From the NCBI GenBank assembly GCA_021783355.1, contig JAJXTZ010000002.1:1-45785 (forward strand): DNA of 45,785 nt, read 5' to 3'. The notes under the pieces are model-generated. The model worked only from the letters and a program-made list of their open reading frames with translations, made no database searches and was not told where the DNA came from. Shown here piece by piece: positions 25,708 through 43,753 of this stretch (its first letter is position 1; each line of letters opens with the position of its first letter). Made by a program: the position numbers and the translations under genes. The stretch comes from a bacterium (GTDB lineage Bacteria; Elusimicrobiota; Elusimicrobia; UBA1565; UBA9628).

Positions 25708-26904
25708 TCAAGACCGATTTCCTTTTTCGAGCCTGGGCATGATTCGCTTCATGAACCCGTCGAAGAGCGGGACCGTGAAGGCGGTGTCTCCGTGCGCGGG
25801 ACTGAAGATCATTCCTTTGGAAATCAGGGTGTTTCTCATCGGTGCGACCGTGCTCACTTTCTTGGAAAGAAGATGCGCGATGTCGCCGGAGCGGTGCGGC
25901 CCGGGTCCGAGTTCCGCCATGGCGCGCATGTACTTCTTTTCCGCCGGAGTCAGACGGTCGAAACGGACGCGGAAGAAGCTGTTGTCGAGCGCGGCCAGAG
26001 CGGCGATGGTCGCTTTTTTCGCGTCATCGACCTTTATCGGGGAACGGGCGGCGATGTCCCAACTGTGCTTACCCCACTCTTGGAGGAAATAGGGATACCC
26101 CTTCGTCTGCTCCAGGATTTCCTTCACGGCCCGGCCGTCGAACTTCGAGCCTTCTTTTTGCGCCGGCACGCAGAGCGCCTCGCGGGCGGAATCGTCGTCG
26201 AGGCTGTCGACATGCACGAATTCGAACAAGCGCTCGGCGTACGACTTCGCGCGTCCCATTTGTCCGAGCAGCTGAGGCAGACCGGCGGCGACCATGGCGA
26301 CGGGAAGTTGATTCTGGCTCGTCCGATGCAGAGCCGAGATCAGCGCGGCGAGCTGCTCTTCCTTCACGTACTGCAGCTCGTCGATGAAAAGAACCACGGC
26401 CGTTTTGTTTTCGAGAGCCGCCAGGCCGGTGTTGTTCAGGAGATCGGCGAGATCCGTTTCCAAATCCCCGCTGTCGGACAAGCCCCTTTTGGGTTCGTAA
26501 TCCATGGCGAGCTCGATGTCGCGGTATTTGACCTTCATCGCGGCGGCGAAGCCCGCCAGGGAAGAGAGAGCTTTCTCCAGGCCCGCGCGGAGCGCGTCGC
26601 CGGCGCTGAGCTTGATCAGAGACGCGCGGAGGGCGGGGGCGAGGATCGCCGGCAAGGATCGGTCCTCAGGAGCTTCGATCTGGACGCAGGAGAAGCCGCG
26701 GCCTTCTGCATCACGGCGGATGGTGTTGAGAAGGACGGTTTTCCCGACTCCGCGGAGGCCGTAAAAGATGAAGCTGCGGGCGGCGCGGCGGCTGCGTATC
26801 CGGTCCAGCGCGATGGCGGCGTTCTCGACGAGGTCGCCGCGACCCGCTAATTCTGGAGGGGGGCTTCCTGCGCCCGGCGCGTAGGGGTTCTTTCTCGGAT
26901 CCAT
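25708..26904 (-). CDS. AAA+ ATPase with C-terminal winged-helix domain (Orc1/Cdc6-like, 'archaeal ATPase'-type architecture)
   Basis: 398 aa. NPYAPGAGSPPPELAGRGDL..., Walker A GLRGVGKTVLL, Walker B VVLFIDELQYV. The C-terminal LTPAEKKYMRAMAELGPGPHRSGDIAHLLSKKVSTVAPMRNTLISKGMIF reads as a wHTH. Codon third positions are visibly less GC-biased than in neighbouring genes. Confidence 0.7.
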   Translation of the reverse strand: MDPRKNPYAPGAGSPPPELAGRGDLVENAAIALDRIRSRRAARSFIFYGLRGVGKTVLLNTIRRDAEGRGFSCVQIEAPEDRSLPAILAPALRASLIKLSAGDALRAGLEKALSSLAGFAAAMKVKYRDIELAMDYEPKRGLSDSGDLETDLADLLNNTGLAALENKTAVVLFIDELQYVKEEQLAALISALHRTSQNQLPVAMVAAGLPQLLGQMGRAKSYAERLFEFVHVDSLDDDSAREALCVPAQKEGSKFDGRAVKEILEQTKGYPYFLQEWGKHSWDIAARSPIKVDDAKKATIAALAALDNSFFRVRFDRLTPAEKKYMRAMAELGPGPHRSGDIAHLLSKKVSTVAPMRNTLISKGMIFSPAHGDTAFTVPLFDGFMKRIMPRLEKGNRS

Positions 26905-26964
26905 TTATAGTTAAGTTAGGCGGAGTTATGTTTTAAACATAATATGACCTAATTCAACTATAAA
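26904..26964. repeat. 61-bp imperfect palindrome in AT-rich spacer
   Basis: Arms TTTATAGTTAAGTTAGGCGGAGTTATGTTT and AAACATAATATGACCTAATTCAACTATAAA surround the centre T at 26934. 23 of 30 arm positions pair, with perfect outer (TTTATAGTT/AACTATAAA) and inner (TTATGTTT/AAACATAA) blocks. Confidence 0.9.
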
Positions 26965-26968
26965 TCAA
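26939..26968 (-). promoter_or_regulatory. candidate sigma70-type promoter for the AAA+ gene
   Basis: On the minus strand: TTGATT (26968-26963), 18-nt spacer, TATTAT (26944-26939). It is embedded in the palindrome. Confidence 0.45.
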
Positions 26969-26984
26969 GCCTAACCGGCGGAAG

Positions 26985-29447
26985 CTAGAACGGCGCCATC
27001 GCGCTCTGCAAGTGGTAGTACGGGGGCTTGGCGCGGTAGCGGAGGATGCACTCCTTCATGATCTCCTCGATGAAGTCCGCGTAGTTCTGGCCGATGACCT
27101 CGGCGCAGGCGGGGACGCAGTCGCCGTCGTTGATCGAGGGGTTCGGGTTGATCTCGATGATGTAGGGATTGCCGGCGTGGTCCACGCGGACCTCGATGCG
27201 GGCGTAGTCGTGGCAGTCGAAGAGGCGGTAGGCGTCCAAGCAGATCTCGGAGATCAGCGCGGTCAGCTTCTGGGTGAACTTGGCCGGGCGCTCGACGCGG
27301 ATGTTCTCGTAGACCGAGCCGCTCTCCCACTTGGCCTGGAACGGATAGATGCCCCAGGTGCCCTTGGGCAGGTCGTCGAAGATCGAGCGCGACAGCGGCA
27401 GGACTTTCACGCGCTCCTCGTTGCCGACCACGGTCACGTCCACCTCGTCGCCTTCGATGAATTCCTCGATGAGAACGGGGCGGTTGTACTTCTCGAGCAG
27501 GTGGTTGACCTGATTCTTCAGGTCCTTGAGGCTGGTCACGACGGACTGGTTCGAGATGCCGATGGAATTGTCGGTGTTGGCGAGCTTGACCATCAGCGGG
27601 TAGCGCAGGTCCTCGCGGATCGGCTCGTCCTTCTGGAACACGTAGTCGAACTTGGGCGTCGGCAGGCCGTGCTGCTCCAGGATCTCCTTGACCTTCACCT
27701 TGTCGATGCACAGCGCCAGGGTCAGCGGGTTGGAGCCGGTGTACGGGATCCCTAGACAGTCCAAGATCGCGGCGGCGTGCGGCTCCAGCAAGGACGAGTT
27801 GTTGATGCGCTCGCAGACGTTGAAGATCAGGTCCACGTTGGCGTTGGCGATCTTGTCGAACGGGAGCGGGGTCTCGTTCATGTCGAAGAAAGTCACGCGG
27901 TGGCCCTTGGACTCCACCGCCTTCTGGATGCTGCGTCCCACGGAGGTCAGGTCGGAGTGGACCGCGCCCTCCTCCGCCCCGTCCTCGGCGTCGTAGACGT
28001 TGCAGAGGATGCCCACGTGCAGGCGCTTCTTGCCCAGGTCCACGCCGCGCACGCGCTCGATGCGGGCCGACTGCAGGATGCGGCGGCGCGACACTTGCGC
28101 CGCGCCGAAGCGGTTCTTGCGCCGGGTCTTGCCCAAGGACGAGGTCGAGTCGAAGCGCGCGATCGAGACCGAGACCTGGCGCATCGCGTCCTCCAGGTTC
28201 TCCTCGGCCTCCGCGTAGGTGTCGCCGCGCCCGACCACCCAGCCCATCGTCTCGAAGCCCTCCGGGGGGACGAGCACCGCGTCGCCCGCCTCCTTGTGGA
28301 CGTTGATGTCGTGGACCTTCTCCGGGGCGGGCTTCTCCTGCGGCAGCTTCACGCCGACGACCACGCCGGAATGCTCCGGGATCATGTACTTGCCGACCAG
28401 ATGGCAGCGGGGCGCCTTCAGGCGCTTGGGCGTGCTGGGCAGGCCGACGGCGATCTTGGAGGTCTCCTCGATGAGGTCCACCTCCCACACGGTCTTGATC
28501 CAGTCGTAGAGGTAGTCGCCGCCCATGCGCGCGTTGATCTCGATGAGCTTGGGGCCGGACGGGGTGATCTTGGCCTCCAGGTGCAGCGCGCCGTTGGTCA
28601 GGCCCAGAGCGGCGACGACCTCCTTGGCCATCTTCAGCACCTCGGAGAGGTCCTTAGCCTCGTGGCGCGAAGGCATCGCGTCGCCGATCTCGACGAAGAA
28701 CGGCTCCTTCGTGGGGAAGTTGTCGGTGAACGCGTGGAACTTGATCTCGCCGCCCTGCACGAGCAGGTCCACGTCCACCTCGGCACCGTCCATGTACTCC
28801 TCGGCCAGGACGTCGGTGCCGTATTTGTAGATCGGGTCGAAGGCCGGGGTCATGTTCGTCTTGATGTAGTCGAAGGCCTTCTTCGCCTCGTCCAGGCTGT
28901 CGAGCTTGACGACGAACTGGCTCTTCACGCCCCAGGCGGGCTTGAGCACCAGCGGGAAGCCGATGCGCGCGGCCGCCTTCTCGAGGTCGGTGTGGCCGTT
29001 GATCAGCGCCCAGGCCGGCTGGTACTTGGCGAGTTTCGCGTTCTCCAGCGTCTGGCGCGTCAGGTACTTGTTGCGCGCGTTGAGCGCGGCCTGAGGCGCG
29101 TTGCCGATCCAGCCGAAGCGCTGGGACAGCGTCGCCGCCAGCGGCACCGCGTTCTCCCAGAAGGTGAGCACGCCGTCGATCTTGGTGGTCTTGACCAGCT
29201 CCTCCACCTTCGCGGCGCAGGCGACCTCGTCGAGCGGGTCGGCCTCGATGAAGCCGTCGGCCAGCTTCGAGACCCAGTTCGCCTCCGAGGCGATCAGGAT
29301 GATCTTCGGGCCCAGCTCCTTGAGGCGCTGGTAGATGAACTTCTTCTTCGGCTGGGGGCTGGCGATGACGAGCAGGGTCTTCGAGCGGAGGTCCGGGCTC
29401 GCGGTCTCGGCGGGCGCGGGCGCGGCGGCGGCGTCGGCATGGTTCAT
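26985..29447 (-). CDS. fusion of two ATP-grasp ligase modules (N: carnosine-synthase/L-amino-acid-ligase-like; C: D-Ala-D-Ala-ligase-family-like)
   Basis: 820 aa. The N half (TLLVIASPQPKKKFIYQRLKELG..., GFPLVLKPAWG, LAEEYMDGAEVDVDLL, LIEINARMGGD) reads as an ATP-grasp_4/CARNS1-like unit. The C half (HVGILCNVY..., LDCLGIPYTGSN, YPLMVKLANTDNSIGIS, LIEEFIEGDEVDVTVVG, YARIEVRVDHAGNPYIIEINPNPS) reads as a Ddl-family unit. Confidence 0.75.
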   Translation of the reverse strand: MNHADAAAAPAPAETASPDLRSKTLLVIASPQPKKKFIYQRLKELGPKIILIASEANWVSKLADGFIEADPLDEVACAAKVEELVKTTKIDGVLTFWENAVPLAATLSQRFGWIGNAPQAALNARNKYLTRQTLENAKLAKYQPAWALINGHTDLEKAAARIGFPLVLKPAWGVKSQFVVKLDSLDEAKKAFDYIKTNMTPAFDPIYKYGTDVLAEEYMDGAEVDVDLLVQGGEIKFHAFTDNFPTKEPFFVEIGDAMPSRHEAKDLSEVLKMAKEVVAALGLTNGALHLEAKITPSGPKLIEINARMGGDYLYDWIKTVWEVDLIEETSKIAVGLPSTPKRLKAPRCHLVGKYMIPEHSGVVVGVKLPQEKPAPEKVHDINVHKEAGDAVLVPPEGFETMGWVVGRGDTYAEAEENLEDAMRQVSVSIARFDSTSSLGKTRRKNRFGAAQVSRRRILQSARIERVRGVDLGKKRLHVGILCNVYDAEDGAEEGAVHSDLTSVGRSIQKAVESKGHRVTFFDMNETPLPFDKIANANVDLIFNVCERINNSSLLEPHAAAILDCLGIPYTGSNPLTLALCIDKVKVKEILEQHGLPTPKFDYVFQKDEPIREDLRYPLMVKLANTDNSIGISNQSVVTSLKDLKNQVNHLLEKYNRPVLIEEFIEGDEVDVTVVGNEERVKVLPLSRSIFDDLPKGTWGIYPFQAKWESGSVYENIRVERPAKFTQKLTALISEICLDAYRLFDCHDYARIEVRVDHAGNPYIIEINPNPSINDGDCVPACAEVIGQNYADFIEEIMKECILRYRAKPPYYHLQSAMAPF

Positions 29448-29455
29448 GGTGATAA

Positions 29456-29484
29456 AGTGTAAAGCATTCTCCGACGGGAATCAA
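29456..29484 (-). promoter_or_regulatory. candidate sigma70-type promoter immediately upstream of the double ATP-grasp gene
   Basis: On the minus strand: TTGATT (29484-29479), 17-nt spacer, TACACT (29461-29456). Only 8 nt remain before the ATG at 29447. Confidence 0.45.
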
Positions 29485-29511
29485 ATGCGTCCACGACGGG
29501 AGCGGGCGGCC

Positions 29512-30762
29512 TCAGGAAACGGCGGCGTCGATGCTCGGGCGGGACCGCTGGCTCTCGATGAGTCCGACCTTGTCGGTCAGCGCGAGCGCCACCACGGTGG
29601 CGATCAGCGTCGTGGGCAGCAGGCGCACGCCGGTCATGCCCGTCACCACGAGCATCGAGCCGAGCGGGGTCTTGGTGACGCCGGCGTTCGTCGCCGCCAT
29701 CAGCGCCGCCATCAGCACGATCTCGTTGGCTCCGGGAAGGAGCGCGTGGCCCAGGCGGCCGAGGCAGGCGCCGATGAAGAACAGCGGGATGATGAAGCCG
29801 CCTTTCCAGCCCGAGGAGACGGTCAAGGTCGTGCCGGCGAACTTGGCGGCCGCGGCGATCGCGAAGACGGCGGCGACTGAGGGGAGCGACAGGAGGCCTC
29901 CGAGCTGGCCTTCGCCGTAAGTCAGCGCGTAGGGCGACGCGAGGGCCAGCGCGCCCAGCCCGAGCCCTCCCAGGAGCGGCCGGGCCCACGGGGGCAGGCG
30001 CGCGAAAGCCGCCGCGAGGCCGCGCACCCCGGAGGTGAAGGCGGCGGCGACGAGAGCGGCGGCGGCGCCCGCGACCGCGGCCCAGGCGAGGTCGGCCGGG
30101 CGCAGGGGCGCCGCGGTCGGGAAGCGCCACACCGGCGCCAGTCCCAGCCCCGTCAGGACGGCGAAGGCGGCGTAGCCGCACAGGGAGCCGACCACGGCCG
30201 GCATCAGGGCCTCGTAGTACTCGAGGCCGCGCCGGTGCAGGAGCTCCAATGAGAAGAGGGAGGCCCCGAGCGGGGCGCCGAAGAGGACGGTGAAGCCGGC
30301 GGCCATGCCCGTGATGGTCAGGACGCGCCGGTCCGTCGCCCCTAGATCCAGCGCGTCGGCGAGACGGCTGCCGAGGGTGCCGGTCGTCTGGACCAGCGGC
30401 GCTTCCGGGCCCGCCCCGCCGCCGGACGCGATGCACAGCAGCGAGACCGGGATCAGCGAGAGCAGCTCGCGCGAGCCGCGAGCTCCGCCGCGGACGTGGA
30501 TGTTGTCGACCAGGACCTCGACCGAGCCCGACGCGCCGAGCCATCGTTCAAGGAGGCCGACCGCGGCCCCGGTCGCGGCGAGGATCCCGGCGACGGTCCA
30601 CGGCCGGGCGCTCCACGCCGCCGGACCGAGGCGGCCGCTCAGCGCGCGCAGGGCCCAGAGGTAGACCGCCCCGAGCGCCGCGCCGCAGACGCCCGTCAGG
30701 ACGATCGCGGCGGCCAGCCGGCCCCGCAGGACGGGAGAACGGGCTTCGCCGGGCTCGGTCAT
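29512..30762 (-). CDS. ClC-family chloride channel / H+-Cl- antiporter
   Basis: 416 aa, polytopic. GGGAGPEAPLVQ (GxEGP-type selectivity motif region), FGAPLGASLFSLE and a second-half repeat (GGFIIPLFFIGA). Confidence 0.85.
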   Translation of the reverse strand: MTEPGEARSPVLRGRLAAAIVLTGVCGAALGAVYLWALRALSGRLGPAAWSARPWTVAGILAATGAAVGLLERWLGASGSVEVLVDNIHVRGGARGSRELLSLIPVSLLCIASGGGAGPEAPLVQTTGTLGSRLADALDLGATDRRVLTITGMAAGFTVLFGAPLGASLFSLELLHRRGLEYYEALMPAVVGSLCGYAAFAVLTGLGLAPVWRFPTAAPLRPADLAWAAVAGAAAALVAAAFTSGVRGLAAAFARLPPWARPLLGGLGLGALALASPYALTYGEGQLGGLLSLPSVAAVFAIAAAAKFAGTTLTVSSGWKGGFIIPLFFIGACLGRLGHALLPGANEIVLMAALMAATNAGVTKTPLGSMLVVTGMTGVRLLPTTLIATVVALALTDKVGLIESQRSRPSIDAAVS

Positions 30763-30801: not shown

Positions 30802-32064
30802 CTAGCGGTAGTCGGGGTTCAGTCGCGCGAGGCTTTCTTCCAGGCGCGCCTGGAACCGCGGAGCCAGCACATCCGCGCAGACCGCGTAGCGGATCAGCGG
30901 TTCGGGAGCGCCGGCGGCGTCCCGCCCGGTGAAGTGGACGCCGACGATCCCGGTGTCCGCGATCACCGCGCGGTTGAAGGCCTCGGCGCGGCCCTCGGCC
31001 GGGAGCCTCGCGCCCAGCACGGACTCGGGGACCTTCCAGAGCGTGAAGAAGCCGGCCTCGGTCGCGCAGGCGGGCCGGAGCCCGGCGGCCTTCAGCCGCG
31101 GGATCAGATAAGCCAAGCGCTTCTCGTACAGCCCGCGGATCGCGTCCAGCGCGGCGCGGGCGGCGGCCTCGTCGGAGAGGAACTCGCCGTAGGCGGCCAT
31201 CACCGACGGGACCGGCCCCGAGTCCGCGTTGCCCTTGACCAGCGCGAAGTCCTCGACGAAATCCTTGGAGCCGGCCAGCGCCCCGAGGCGCGCGCCCGGG
31301 TCGTTGAAGGATTTGGACACCGAGTAGAGCTCCAGCCACTCGAGGTCCGGGTAGTCCTTGGCGACGCGGGCGAGGGGGACGCTGGTCCCCGCCGCGGCCA
31401 GCCCCGCGTAAGCCGCGTCGTTGACCAGGCGCATGCCCTTCTCCAGGCAGAACGCGATCAGCTCGCGCCAGTCGGCCTCCGACGCGCCGACGGCGGCCGG
31501 ATTGCCGGGGCGGATCACGTACACCAGGTCGGCGCGGTCGGCCCCGTCGGCTTTGAGCGCCTCCTTCAGGCGCGGCACGCTCAAGCGCATGTTGTCGGCC
31601 GAGACCAGCGGCCACACCGTGCGCTCGGCTCCGTAATACGAGGAAGACCAGGTGCCGATCACGTCGTAGGCGGGGAGGTTCGACGCGACGCGGAAGCTCC
31701 GGCGCCGCGCGGCGCCGGGCAGGTGCAGGCCGCAGGCGAGCGGCACCAGCGCGCCGGCGGTCTTGATCCCGGCGATCGGCAGGACGCGCAGACGAGGGTG
31801 CGCGCGCGCGTCGATCCCGCCGTGCAGGCGGACCATCGCGCCGGCGAAGCCCTGCAGGTCCTTGTCCTCGGCGTAGGTGTGGTGCTCGTAGCCGGGGTCG
31901 GCGGCGTACTTCGCCTGCAGGCGGAGGAGCGCCTCCGGGGGGACGCCGTCGGGATTGCCGAGCGAGAGGTTCAGCGGGTCCTCTCCGGTGCGCTCCTTGT
32001 ACTCGCGCAGGAGCACGTAGATCAGCTGGAAGAGGTTGATCCCGGAGGCGGGGATGCGCCGCAT
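30802..32064 (-). CDS. class I/II PLP-dependent aminotransferase
   Basis: 420 aa: LSLGNPDG, NPGNP-like IRPGNPAA, LVNDAAYAG, and YSVSKSFNDPGARLG carrying the Schiff-base Lys. Substrate not inferable. Confidence 0.8.
   Translation of the reverse strand: MRRIPASGINLFQLIYVLLREYKERTGEDPLNLSLGNPDGVPPEALLRLQAKYAADPGYEHHTYAEDKDLQGFAGAMVRLHGGIDARAHPRLRVLPIAGIKTAGALVPLACGLHLPGAARRRSFRVASNLPAYDVIGTWSSSYYGAERTVWPLVSADNMRLSVPRLKEALKADGADRADLVYVIRPGNPAAVGASEADWRELIAFCLEKGMRLVNDAAYAGLAAAGTSVPLARVAKDYPDLEWLELYSVSKSFNDPGARLGALAGSKDFVEDFALVKGNADSGPVPSVMAAYGEFLSDEAAARAALDAIRGLYEKRLAYLIPRLKAAGLRPACATEAGFFTLWKVPESVLGARLPAEGRAEAFNRAVIADTGIVGVHFTGRDAAGAPEPLIRYAVCADVLAPRFQARLEESLARLNPDYR

Positions 32065-41260: not shown

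Positions 41261-43753
<2,493 letters not shown>

Follow-up and report, generated by a model that had tools for sequence, protein, structure and literature searches.

What does a cell make with a single protein that carries two different ligase sites? The question is raised by a gene on a 45,785-nucleotide stretch of DNA from an Elusimicrobia bacterium of a mine-tailings metagenome (contig JAJXTZ010000002.1, positions 1 to 45,785; hereafter the window, meaning the whole stretch analysed), which encodes an 820-residue fusion of two ATP-grasp modules. We read this protein, hereafter the ligase, as a cytoplasmic bifunctional carboxylate-amine ligase that makes a short, defined peptide or pseudopeptide through two ATP-dependent reactions, and put the probability of this reading at about 0.6. 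The modules resemble L-amino-acid ligases (LALs) and D-alanine-D-alanine ligases (Ddl), respectively, and the parts of the gene are as follows.

26985..29447 (stop codon included), minus strand: whole open reading frame (ORF) of the double ATP-grasp ligase, 820 residues, a single uninterrupted frame with a G+C content at third codon positions (GC3) of 0.97 and full-length homologues at 45-90% identity
28152..29390, minus strand: N module, residues 20-432, delimited by Pfam, a PDB sequence match, Foldseek and invariant residues
28023..28151, minus strand: inter-module segment, residues 433-475, a basic motif SS(L/I)GKTxRKNRF..A followed by a helix at 451-467
27018..28022, minus strand: C module, residues 476-810, a Ddl-fold ATP-grasp delimited by Pfam, Foldseek and invariant residues
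27006..27026, minus strand: C-terminal tail PPYYHLQ, residues 808-814, with H812 invariant and P808, P809, Y810 and L813 nearly invariant across 82 sequences
Residues 34-46, 163-170, 216-227 and 302-311: motifs of the N half, respectively KKKFIYQRLKELG, GFPLVLKP, EEYMDG.EVDVD and IEINARMGGD
Residues 436-456: basic linker motif SSLGKTRRKNRFGAAQVSRRR
Residues 565-573, 616-632, 660-675, 749-756 and 761-771: motifs of the C half, respectively LGIPYTGSN, YPLMVKLANTDNSIGIS, IEEFIEGDEVDVTVVG, ARIEVRVD and PYIIEINPNPS

An earlier note on this DNA had described an 820-residue frame at 26985-29447 without giving its strand, comprising an N-terminal ATP-grasp of the carnosine-synthase or LAL type, a C-terminal one of the Ddl family, and a basic linker joining them. 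The frame is uninterrupted and lies on the minus strand, and all of the quoted motif strings are present, between residues 34 and 771, with the basic linker at 436-456. That linker is not only present but itself conserved, and the C-terminal assignment holds over the whole Ddl fold; of the N-terminal description, the LAL-type part is the one upheld by the best PDB match. GC3 is 0.97 in both halves and matches that of the neighbouring native genes, in a genome of ~68% G+C. The codon usage of the ligase is thus native to the genome and the gene a resident rather than a recent import. As the same full-length fusion was found in hundreds of independent contigs, the junction between the modules is not an assembly artefact.

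The N half has the make-up of an LAL. Pfam detects ATPgrasp_N (residues 43-112), ATP-grasp_4 (PF13535; 162-311, 1.6e-24) and LAL_C2 (PF18603; 354-429, 2.5e-10), the same three-part fold with LAL_C2 that is found in BL00235 (3vot), RizA (4wd3), BacD-YwfE (3vmm) and DdaF. The closest PDB sequence is the L-amino acid ligase BL00235 (E 1e-21, residues 21-413), followed by RizA and then BacD, and Foldseek places the half on 3vot with a template modelling (TM) score of 0.86. Motif conservation was judged on alignments of 22 and 82 family members, in which K127, K169 (VLKP), E216 (hinge), H289/E291, E303, R307, G309, G310 and D311 are invariant or nearly so; across the 82 sequences K169, E216, E291 and R307 are invariant, E303 near-invariant and G309/G310 nearly so. 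Residue-level alignment to 3vot, 4wd3 and 3wo1 supports the catalytic equivalences. The half thus combines the ATP-grasp_4 core and LAL_C2 with the catalytic Arg of E-x-(N/A)-x-R-x-G-G, and shares with the LALs the K, E-E hinge and H-x-E motifs as well. Both halves, moreover, possess the features that define the ATP-grasp superfamily, namely the phosphate-binding Lys, the acidic hinge pair and the Mg-binding acidic or Asn residues. Neither reaches a named family in NCBIfam.

The C half is a Ddl fold of a distinct kind. Dala_Dala_lig_C covers residues 590-797 (4e-34), the closest PDB sequences are Ddl and Van ligases, and Foldseek lays the half over complete Ddl structures (~305/306 residues, TM 0.83-0.87), in a family that includes DdlB (2dln), DdlA (8evx) and VanA (1e4e). 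K583 (IDK), K621, D626-N-S-I-G630, E661-E662, K706, R750-x-E752, E765-x-N767 and P-N-P-S771 are invariant, with K706-W707 invariant or nearly so, and residue-level alignments to the Ddl enzymes of B. anthracis and P. aeruginosa support the catalytic equivalences. Equivalents of K97, K144, S150, E180, K215, R255, E270 and N272 are kept, and that of D257 is a Glu. The signatures of the half are FNVCERINNSSLLEPH at 542-557, TDNSIG, AKW and E(I/L)NPNPSI.

These features could be taken to mean that the C module is the cell's ordinary peptidoglycan D-Ala-D-Ala ligase fused to an accessory ligase, in the manner of the Chlamydia MurC-Ddl protein, and the Joint Genome Institute annotation of 'D-alanine-D-alanine ligase', like the fold itself, agrees with this. 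All of the NCBIfam Ddl models, which match residues 504-800, nevertheless fall under their cut-offs (NF002378, 177.2 against 243; TIGR01205, 150.3 against 245.65). The substrate loop of the Ddl N-domain (GG.S.E...LHG..GEDG) is replaced by the invariant FNVCERINNSSLLEPH (FNVCER...EPH), to the point that phmmer cannot align it; the omega-loop KY has become KW, placing a Trp at Ddl Y216; and S-IN...D-C stands where the second-D-Ala pocket of Ddl has G-MT...S-L. The D-Ala-binding residues of E. coli DdlB (the E15 loop, S150, Y216 and S281/L282) are not reproduced as a set in the C half. The family is also conserved in the murein-less Micrarchaeota, Woesearchaeota, Nanoarchaeota and Diapherotrites, members of the DPANN archaea (Diapherotrites, Parvarchaeota, Aenigmarchaeota, Nanoarchaeota and Nanohaloarchaeota), and the recurrent neighbours of related loci included no mur genes. 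Because the cut-offs are missed, the loop is replaced, the pocket and omega-loop are changed and the family occurs in archaea that have no murein, the C module is, as judged from its residues, no orthologous Ddl: its ATP and Mg residues are of the Ddl type, while its substrate site has been remodelled. We consider the ordinary-Ddl explanation scarcely credible. The strong conservation of the remodelled loop suggests one specific, conserved substrate.

Whether both sites are intact is the next question, as a degenerate half was the finding by which the earlier note would have given up its proposal. No ATP-binding or catalytic residue is lost in either half of the 820-residue protein, and judging from the alignments the ATP, Mg and catalytic motifs are kept in both modules across 82 homologues. 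Pairwise comparison with close relatives gives the N module a ratio of nonsynonymous to synonymous substitution rates (dN/dS) of 0.14-0.27 and the C module one of 0.06-0.18. The extreme GC3 compresses dS, so that both ranges are to be read as upper estimates. Both modules are, on these comparisons, under purifying selection. It could still be that only one module is catalytic in vivo and that a single bond is formed, the other module serving as a substrate-binding, regulatory or oligomerisation domain. Some distant fusions lend this a precedent: the N-module motif E..R.GG is gone from P0129, and the C-module motifs E-x-N, K-W and TDNSIG are gone from P0133, P0134, P0136, P0139 and P0140. Against it stand the residues kept in both modules of the ligase and its 82 close members, as well as the low dN/dS of both halves, and we regard a single working site as quite unlikely here. 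The six distant fusions retain their overall length and the SxxGK linker motif despite the decay of one module.

The segments outside the two modules are conserved as well. In the linker, all 82 sequences have S436 and G439, and nearly all have T441, R443 and A450; the S and G are retained even in fusions at 25-46% identity. Distant fusions with a degenerate C module have lost the PPYYHLQ tail. The AlphaFold2 model, for which the 82 homologues were used, has a mean predicted local distance difference test score (pLDDT) of 86.7 and a predicted TM score (pTM) of 0.62, with low confidence at roughly 430-470, pLDDT in the inter-module segment being ~50. A Foldseek search against the PDB returned no solved protein with this double-ligase architecture.

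Taken together, these features would describe the following course of reaction. Each module would bind MgATP, convert a substrate carboxylate into an acyl-phosphate and let an amine attack it, one amide bond being formed per ATP. Most likely, the LAL-type N module would join two free amino acids into a dipeptide, and the Ddl-fold C module would either add a third residue or take the dipeptide for one of two substrates. Neither the ribosome nor a non-ribosomal peptide synthetase (NRPS) would be needed for the resulting short, defined peptide or pseudopeptide, which in some lineages may be extended or tailored by a tRNA-dependent FemAB-like transferase, by a third ATP-grasp enzyme, by a decarboxylase or by a possible epimerase. 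The joint action of the two sites on one product, the sequence of the steps and the small-molecule nature of the product are inferred. Three lines of evidence lead to the reading as a short-peptide ligase. Firstly, the characterised relatives of either half (BL00235, RizA, BacD, DdaF and the Ddl/Van ligases) all act on free amino acids or other small molecules. Secondly, the commonest operon partners of the ligase are further amide-forming or amino-acid-modifying enzymes. Thirdly, rhizobial plasmids carry LAL-like and Ddl-like genes as pairs. The architecture put forward in the earlier note stands, while its list of product types (tripeptide, conjugate or polymer) keeps the standing of a proposal.

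Several observations weigh against a two-step peptide synthetase. No member of the family has a known substrate, product or activity. The window ligase has no conserved operon partner that would point to a pathway, and the recurrent Clp/Hsp100, EpmA and proteasome neighbours described below could indicate a protein substrate. In distant members of the wider family (25-46% identity) the catalytic residues of one module have been lost; as single modules have decayed in these branches, the two-step reaction is not obligatory for this pair of folds. Finally, given the pTM of 0.62 and the low-confidence linker, the model leaves the relative placement of the two active sites undefined and lends no support to a hand-over of the intermediate.

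The family is broadly distributed. In a word-indexed search covering 5.8 billion proteins all matches were full-length fusions with generic names, at 60-90% identity in Elusimicrobia and at 45-50% in Micrarchaeota, Nanoarchaeota, Woesearchaeota and Diapherotrites archaea and in Roizmanbacteria, Peregrinibacteria and other Patescibacteria. Relatives are encoded in 248 of 185,579 species genomes and on 319 metagenome contigs. An exhaustive phmmer search of 1.84 billion representatives extended the fusions down to 32% identity and added stand-alone versions of each half, together with giant proteins bearing the N half at their C-terminus and the C-half subfamily fused to a GNAT or duplicated in tandem; none of these fusions, stand-alone halves or other architectures reaches a named NCBIfam model. 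In phage records the only matches were to the C half, at 24-27%, from Ddl-like genes of the ordinary kind, and no full-length copy of the ligase was found on the plasmids searched. In a maximum-likelihood tree of the ligase, Elusimicrobia, DPANN and the Candidate Phyla Radiation (CPR) each form one clade, a topology which fits old transfers followed by vertical descent. Literature searches on the fusion, on ATP-grasp enzymes in CPR, DPANN or Elusimicrobia, and on ATP-grasp enzymes with elongation factor P (EF-P) found nothing relevant. A fused ligase that had already been characterised, the other finding that would have overturned the earlier proposal, was matched neither in the PDB and NCBIfam nor in this literature. 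The double-ligase fusion is a widespread uncharacterised family, which Elusimicrobia have in common with minute bacteria and archaea of groundwater, with no description in the PDB, NCBIfam, Pfam architectures or the literature searched.

Neighbourhoods were compared by clustering six-frame ORFs around the ligase at ~154 loci, which fall into 38 lineages when the ligases are grouped at 70% identity. In six lineages (L064, L087, L089, L136, L145/146 and L166) the ligase is immediately followed, on its own strand, by a FemAB-like Acetyltransf_6 gene; in L060/L093 such a gene diverges from the ligase. Three CPR lineages carry tight co-directional operons that unite a QueC/MurL-like protein, the fusion, a third ATP-grasp enzyme and a pyridoxal-phosphate (PLP) decarboxylase of the ornithine/diaminopimelate/arginine type; a pathway-like cluster on a rhizobial plasmid is listed with them.

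L155:3919-12095 (plus strand), L082:2487-11640 (plus strand) and L164: Komeilibacteria-type CPR operons comprising a QueC/MurL-like protein, an unknown 459-residue protein, the ligase, a YheCD-like ATP-grasp and a PLP decarboxylase
L170, 196006-205368, R. leguminosarum symbiotic plasmid pRlvC, beside nifHDKE: an ectB-like transaminase, an LAL-like ATP-grasp, a Ddl-family protein, a hypothetical protein, a second ATP-grasp and a major facilitator superfamily (MFS) transporter

The gene content of the L155, L082 and L164 operons makes them a candidate multi-enzyme peptide pathway; L082 additionally holds a SET-domain protein. On rhizobial plasmids, unfused LAL-like and Ddl-like genes stand as pairs beside an ectB-like transaminase and an MFS exporter, and the genes of the pRlvC cluster give it the appearance of a diaminobutyrate-peptide pathway, as yet uncharacterised. 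Isoleucyl-tRNA synthetase (IleRS) and a NIF3-like gene flank the ligase in five lineages that are related and have RuvA and pyrF in common as well, which looks like plain synteny.

Hydrolases of the M14 or AstE type adjoin the ligase in a few loci, as do M29 peptidases in some lineages, and all of these might be depolymerases of a product made by a two-site polymerase, whose sites would alternate to build a poly-amino-acid or poly-dipeptide for storage or the envelope, as in cyanophycin synthetase. The presence of two non-identical ligase sites in one chain would suit such an enzyme, as would a weak match to cyanophycin synthase 7lgn (E 3e-3), which is confined to the ATP-grasp core. Pfam, however, finds neither a Mur-ligase-like M domain nor a primer-binding N domain, the peptidase neighbours are sporadic (3-4 of ~150 loci), and no characterised enzyme of the LAL or Ddl type is processive, save for some LALs that form oligomers. 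We regard a polymerase as quite unlikely.

A second group of neighbours belongs to translation and protein quality control.

41261..43753, plus strand, in the window: ClpC-type Hsp100 ATPase (Pfam Clp_N, AAA, AAA_2, UVR and ClpB_D2-small), divergent from the ligase and 11.8 kb away
L002:5671-7893, minus strand: CPR Clp-like double-AAA+ protein of ~740 residues that has no Clp_N, with homologues in L071, L073-L076 and L081
L161:5178-6212 (plus strand), L134:5878-6906 (minus strand) and L071:10413-11366 (minus strand): EpmA (EF-P lysine aminoacylase) adjoining the ligase in three CPR lineages
L003/L061:10528-11160, plus strand: proteasome subunit gene on a Nanoarchaeota contig, 88 nt after the ligase on the same strand

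Of 48 Elusimicrobia loci, 22 have a Clp/Hsp100 gene upstream of the ligase on the opposite strand, with gaps between 132 bp and 5.5 kb; the same holds for 7 of 14 CPR loci, five of them with gaps of 85-160 bp. Loci with this divergent arrangement include L029, L030, L027, L002, L071, L074, L076 and L081. The CPR ATPases are only 29-37% identical to Elusimicrobia ClpC and have no Clp_N region in the alignment, and on this ground a co-transfer of clp and ligase between the phyla is rejected. Both adjacencies, moreover, sit in derived clades of the ligase tree and occur in no basal CPR, basal Elusimicrobia or DPANN locus; this placement and the low identity of the ATPases together suggest two independent juxtapositions. 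By a rough estimate the probability of such a recurrence by chance is ~0.01, and we regard the association of Clp with the ligase as suggestive. A search of the regions upstream of the ligase, clp-ligase spacers included, found no shared heat-shock operator (CtsR box, CIRCE or HAIR). The seemingly hydrophobic N-terminus of the CPR protein (LLLFFPYFF..., read from the L002 DNA) suggests a membrane-anchored Hsp100.

These neighbours raise the prospect that the ligase modifies proteins or peptides, adding amino acids to a carboxylate or lysine as RimK, TTL and LysX do, and that it marks or tunes a target, for instance a Clp substrate or EF-P/aIF5A, that is linked to protein quality control or translation. 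Besides the two seemingly separate Clp juxtapositions, one in a large clade of Elusimicrobia and the other in a single CPR clade, the proteasome subunit directly downstream in one Nanoarchaeota locus is in keeping with this, and so are the EpmA genes, over the NCBIfam cut-off in two of the three CPR lineages. The conserved inter-module motif and C-terminal tail, whose role is unexplained, count in its favour as well. Other evidence runs counter to a protein substrate. Neither half belongs to the RimK, TTL or LysX families, with matches that are weak and secondary (TIGR00768, 77.7 against 143.4; LysX, 63.8 against 275.6; Pfam RimK, a secondary overlapping match of 23 bits). All characterised LAL and Ddl relatives take small substrates and the commonest operon partners are small-molecule enzymes, while the Clp adjacency is confined to derived clades and the CPR loci lie in a general synteny of translation genes (ribosomal protein S2, elongation factor Ts and ribosome recycling factor) that possibly accounts for EpmA. 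We therefore hold a protein-modifying role to be unlikely. A more specific version, in which the ligase of Elusimicrobia, CPR and DPANN is a tagging enzyme and attaches a short branch of peptide to a protein, is a long shot; the branch could be a degradation or quality-control mark read by the divergently encoded Clp/Hsp100 or by the proteasome, or a modification of the EF-P/aIF5A type. Were it true, such tagging would be the ATP-grasp counterpart of pupylation or beta-lysylation.

In the window itself, the surroundings of the ligase gene are as follows.

25708-26904, minus strand: AAA_16/STAND-like ATPase, downstream of the ligase, GC3 0.77 against ~0.95 in its neighbours
Further downstream, beyond the AAA_16 ATPase: GalE-like epimerase
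29456..29484, minus strand: promoter-like element TTGATT-N17-TACACT, TTGATTCCCGTCGGAGAATGCTTTACACT, 29 nt, ending 8 nt before the ligase ATG within a 64-nt spacer
29512-30762, minus strand: ClC channel of 416 residues, directly upstream of the ligase
30802-32064: DapL-like aminotransferase, upstream of the ClC gene

Close relatives carry the 29-nt element, its 17-nt spacer included, almost unchanged, and in Elusimicrobia further removed TATAAT-like boxes stand 6-9 nt ahead of the ligase start codon; a generic promoter scan placed the element under threshold. A look for RNA-seq runs containing the locus found none. From the sequence pattern, the ligase transcript would appear to be autonomous and leaderless or near-leaderless, and the element may serve as promoter plus operator for it. 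An imperfect inverted repeat, TTCCCG-N-CGGAGAA, occupies the 17-nt spacer. A pathway of aminotransferase, ClC channel and ligase, which had been proposed in a related note on the same stretch, is unsupported by conservation. The co-directional run forms no pathway, since the ClC gene is on the other strand in the closest relative, where different small genes follow the ligase, and since the ligase has its own conserved promoter-like element. The 'aminotransferase' beside a distant ligase homologue is of the BioF/Kbl kind and shares no similarity with the DapL-like enzyme of the window. The window ClC channel has none of the CBS domains that its 582-residue orthologue in a close relative carries. 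An ORF at 29444-30544 (minus strand), which overlaps the ligase start by ATGA, was rejected as a wrong-frame artefact of high G+C, its GC3 being only 0.56; the real upstream gene is the ClC channel.

The AAA_16 ATPase sits behind an AT-rich spacer (26905-26984) with its own promoter-like site, TTGATT-N18-TATTAT, and has probably come in by horizontal transfer, inserting itself between the ligase and the galE-like gene. Profile searches found no FemAB-like or EpmA-like gene in the window; the QueC/MurL-like, third ATP-grasp, PLP decarboxylase, M14/AstE and IleRS/NIF3-like partners did not turn up there either, profile searches having covered only the FemAB-like and EpmA families.

The spread of the fusion gives it a wider significance. 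CPR and DPANN genomes are very small and have few biosynthetic genes, yet an 800-residue ligase has been kept in them at 45-50% identity across the divide between bacteria and archaea. Its retention in reduced genomes speaks for a specific and important product that current metabolic reconstructions overlook, and identifying this product would add a peptide independent of ribosome and NRPS to the biochemistry of these uncultured groups.

Comparison with known systems helps to place the two-step reading. The N half presumably shares with LALs their mechanism of acyl-phosphate followed by amide formation, but its identity to them is only ~22%, it scores far under the NCBIfam cut-offs of BacD and DdaF, and it is fused to a second ligase. 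The C half shares with Ddl enzymes the full fold and differs in its substrate site, as set out above. The only solved chain to span both halves is the large subunit of carbamoyl-phosphate synthetase, which also has two ATP-grasp units; the root-mean-square deviation is ~20 A and the identity 12-14%, and both chemistry and domain order differ. The rhizobial pairs (RLV_RS00935/RS00940) have the two module types in the same order, as adjacent genes in a cluster of small-molecule type, but the identity is only 22-24%, and their Ddl-like protein belongs to another subfamily, since it keeps the canonical LHG..GEDG, KY and NT.PG motifs.

The earlier note had likened the ligase to cyanophycin synthetase, to the ligases of mycosporine-like amino acid (MAA) pathways and to GshF, comparisons which serve as analogies, the extra domains or partner genes that define each system being absent. 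Cyanophycin synthetase combines ATP-grasp and Mur-like sites, and it is the Mur-ligase-like M domain that is missing from the 820-residue ligase. In the MAA pathways MysC and MysD, a generic ATP-grasp enzyme and a Ddl-like ligase, act successively on one scaffold. The likeness here would lie in the pairing of an ATP-grasp with a Ddl-like ligase; MysC and MysD, by contrast, are separate proteins and need a 4-deoxygadusol core supplied by a dehydroquinate-synthase-like (DHQS-like) enzyme and an O-methyltransferase, and no DHQS-like gene was found among the Pfam-scanned ORFs of the window or the recurrent neighbours of ~150 related loci. GshF makes a tripeptide in two ATP-dependent steps with two ligase sites on one chain, the second being a Ddl-like ATP-grasp. 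Its first module is a gamma-glutamylcysteine ligase of the GshA fold, not an ATP-grasp, and the ligase has no Pfam or NCBIfam match to a GshA domain. By analogy, then, the common ground would be a single chain with two different ligase sites of which the second is Ddl-like, and if the ligase is indeed a two-step synthetase, it would be the second natural single-chain example besides GshF and a compact two-site ligase for enzymatic peptide synthesis.

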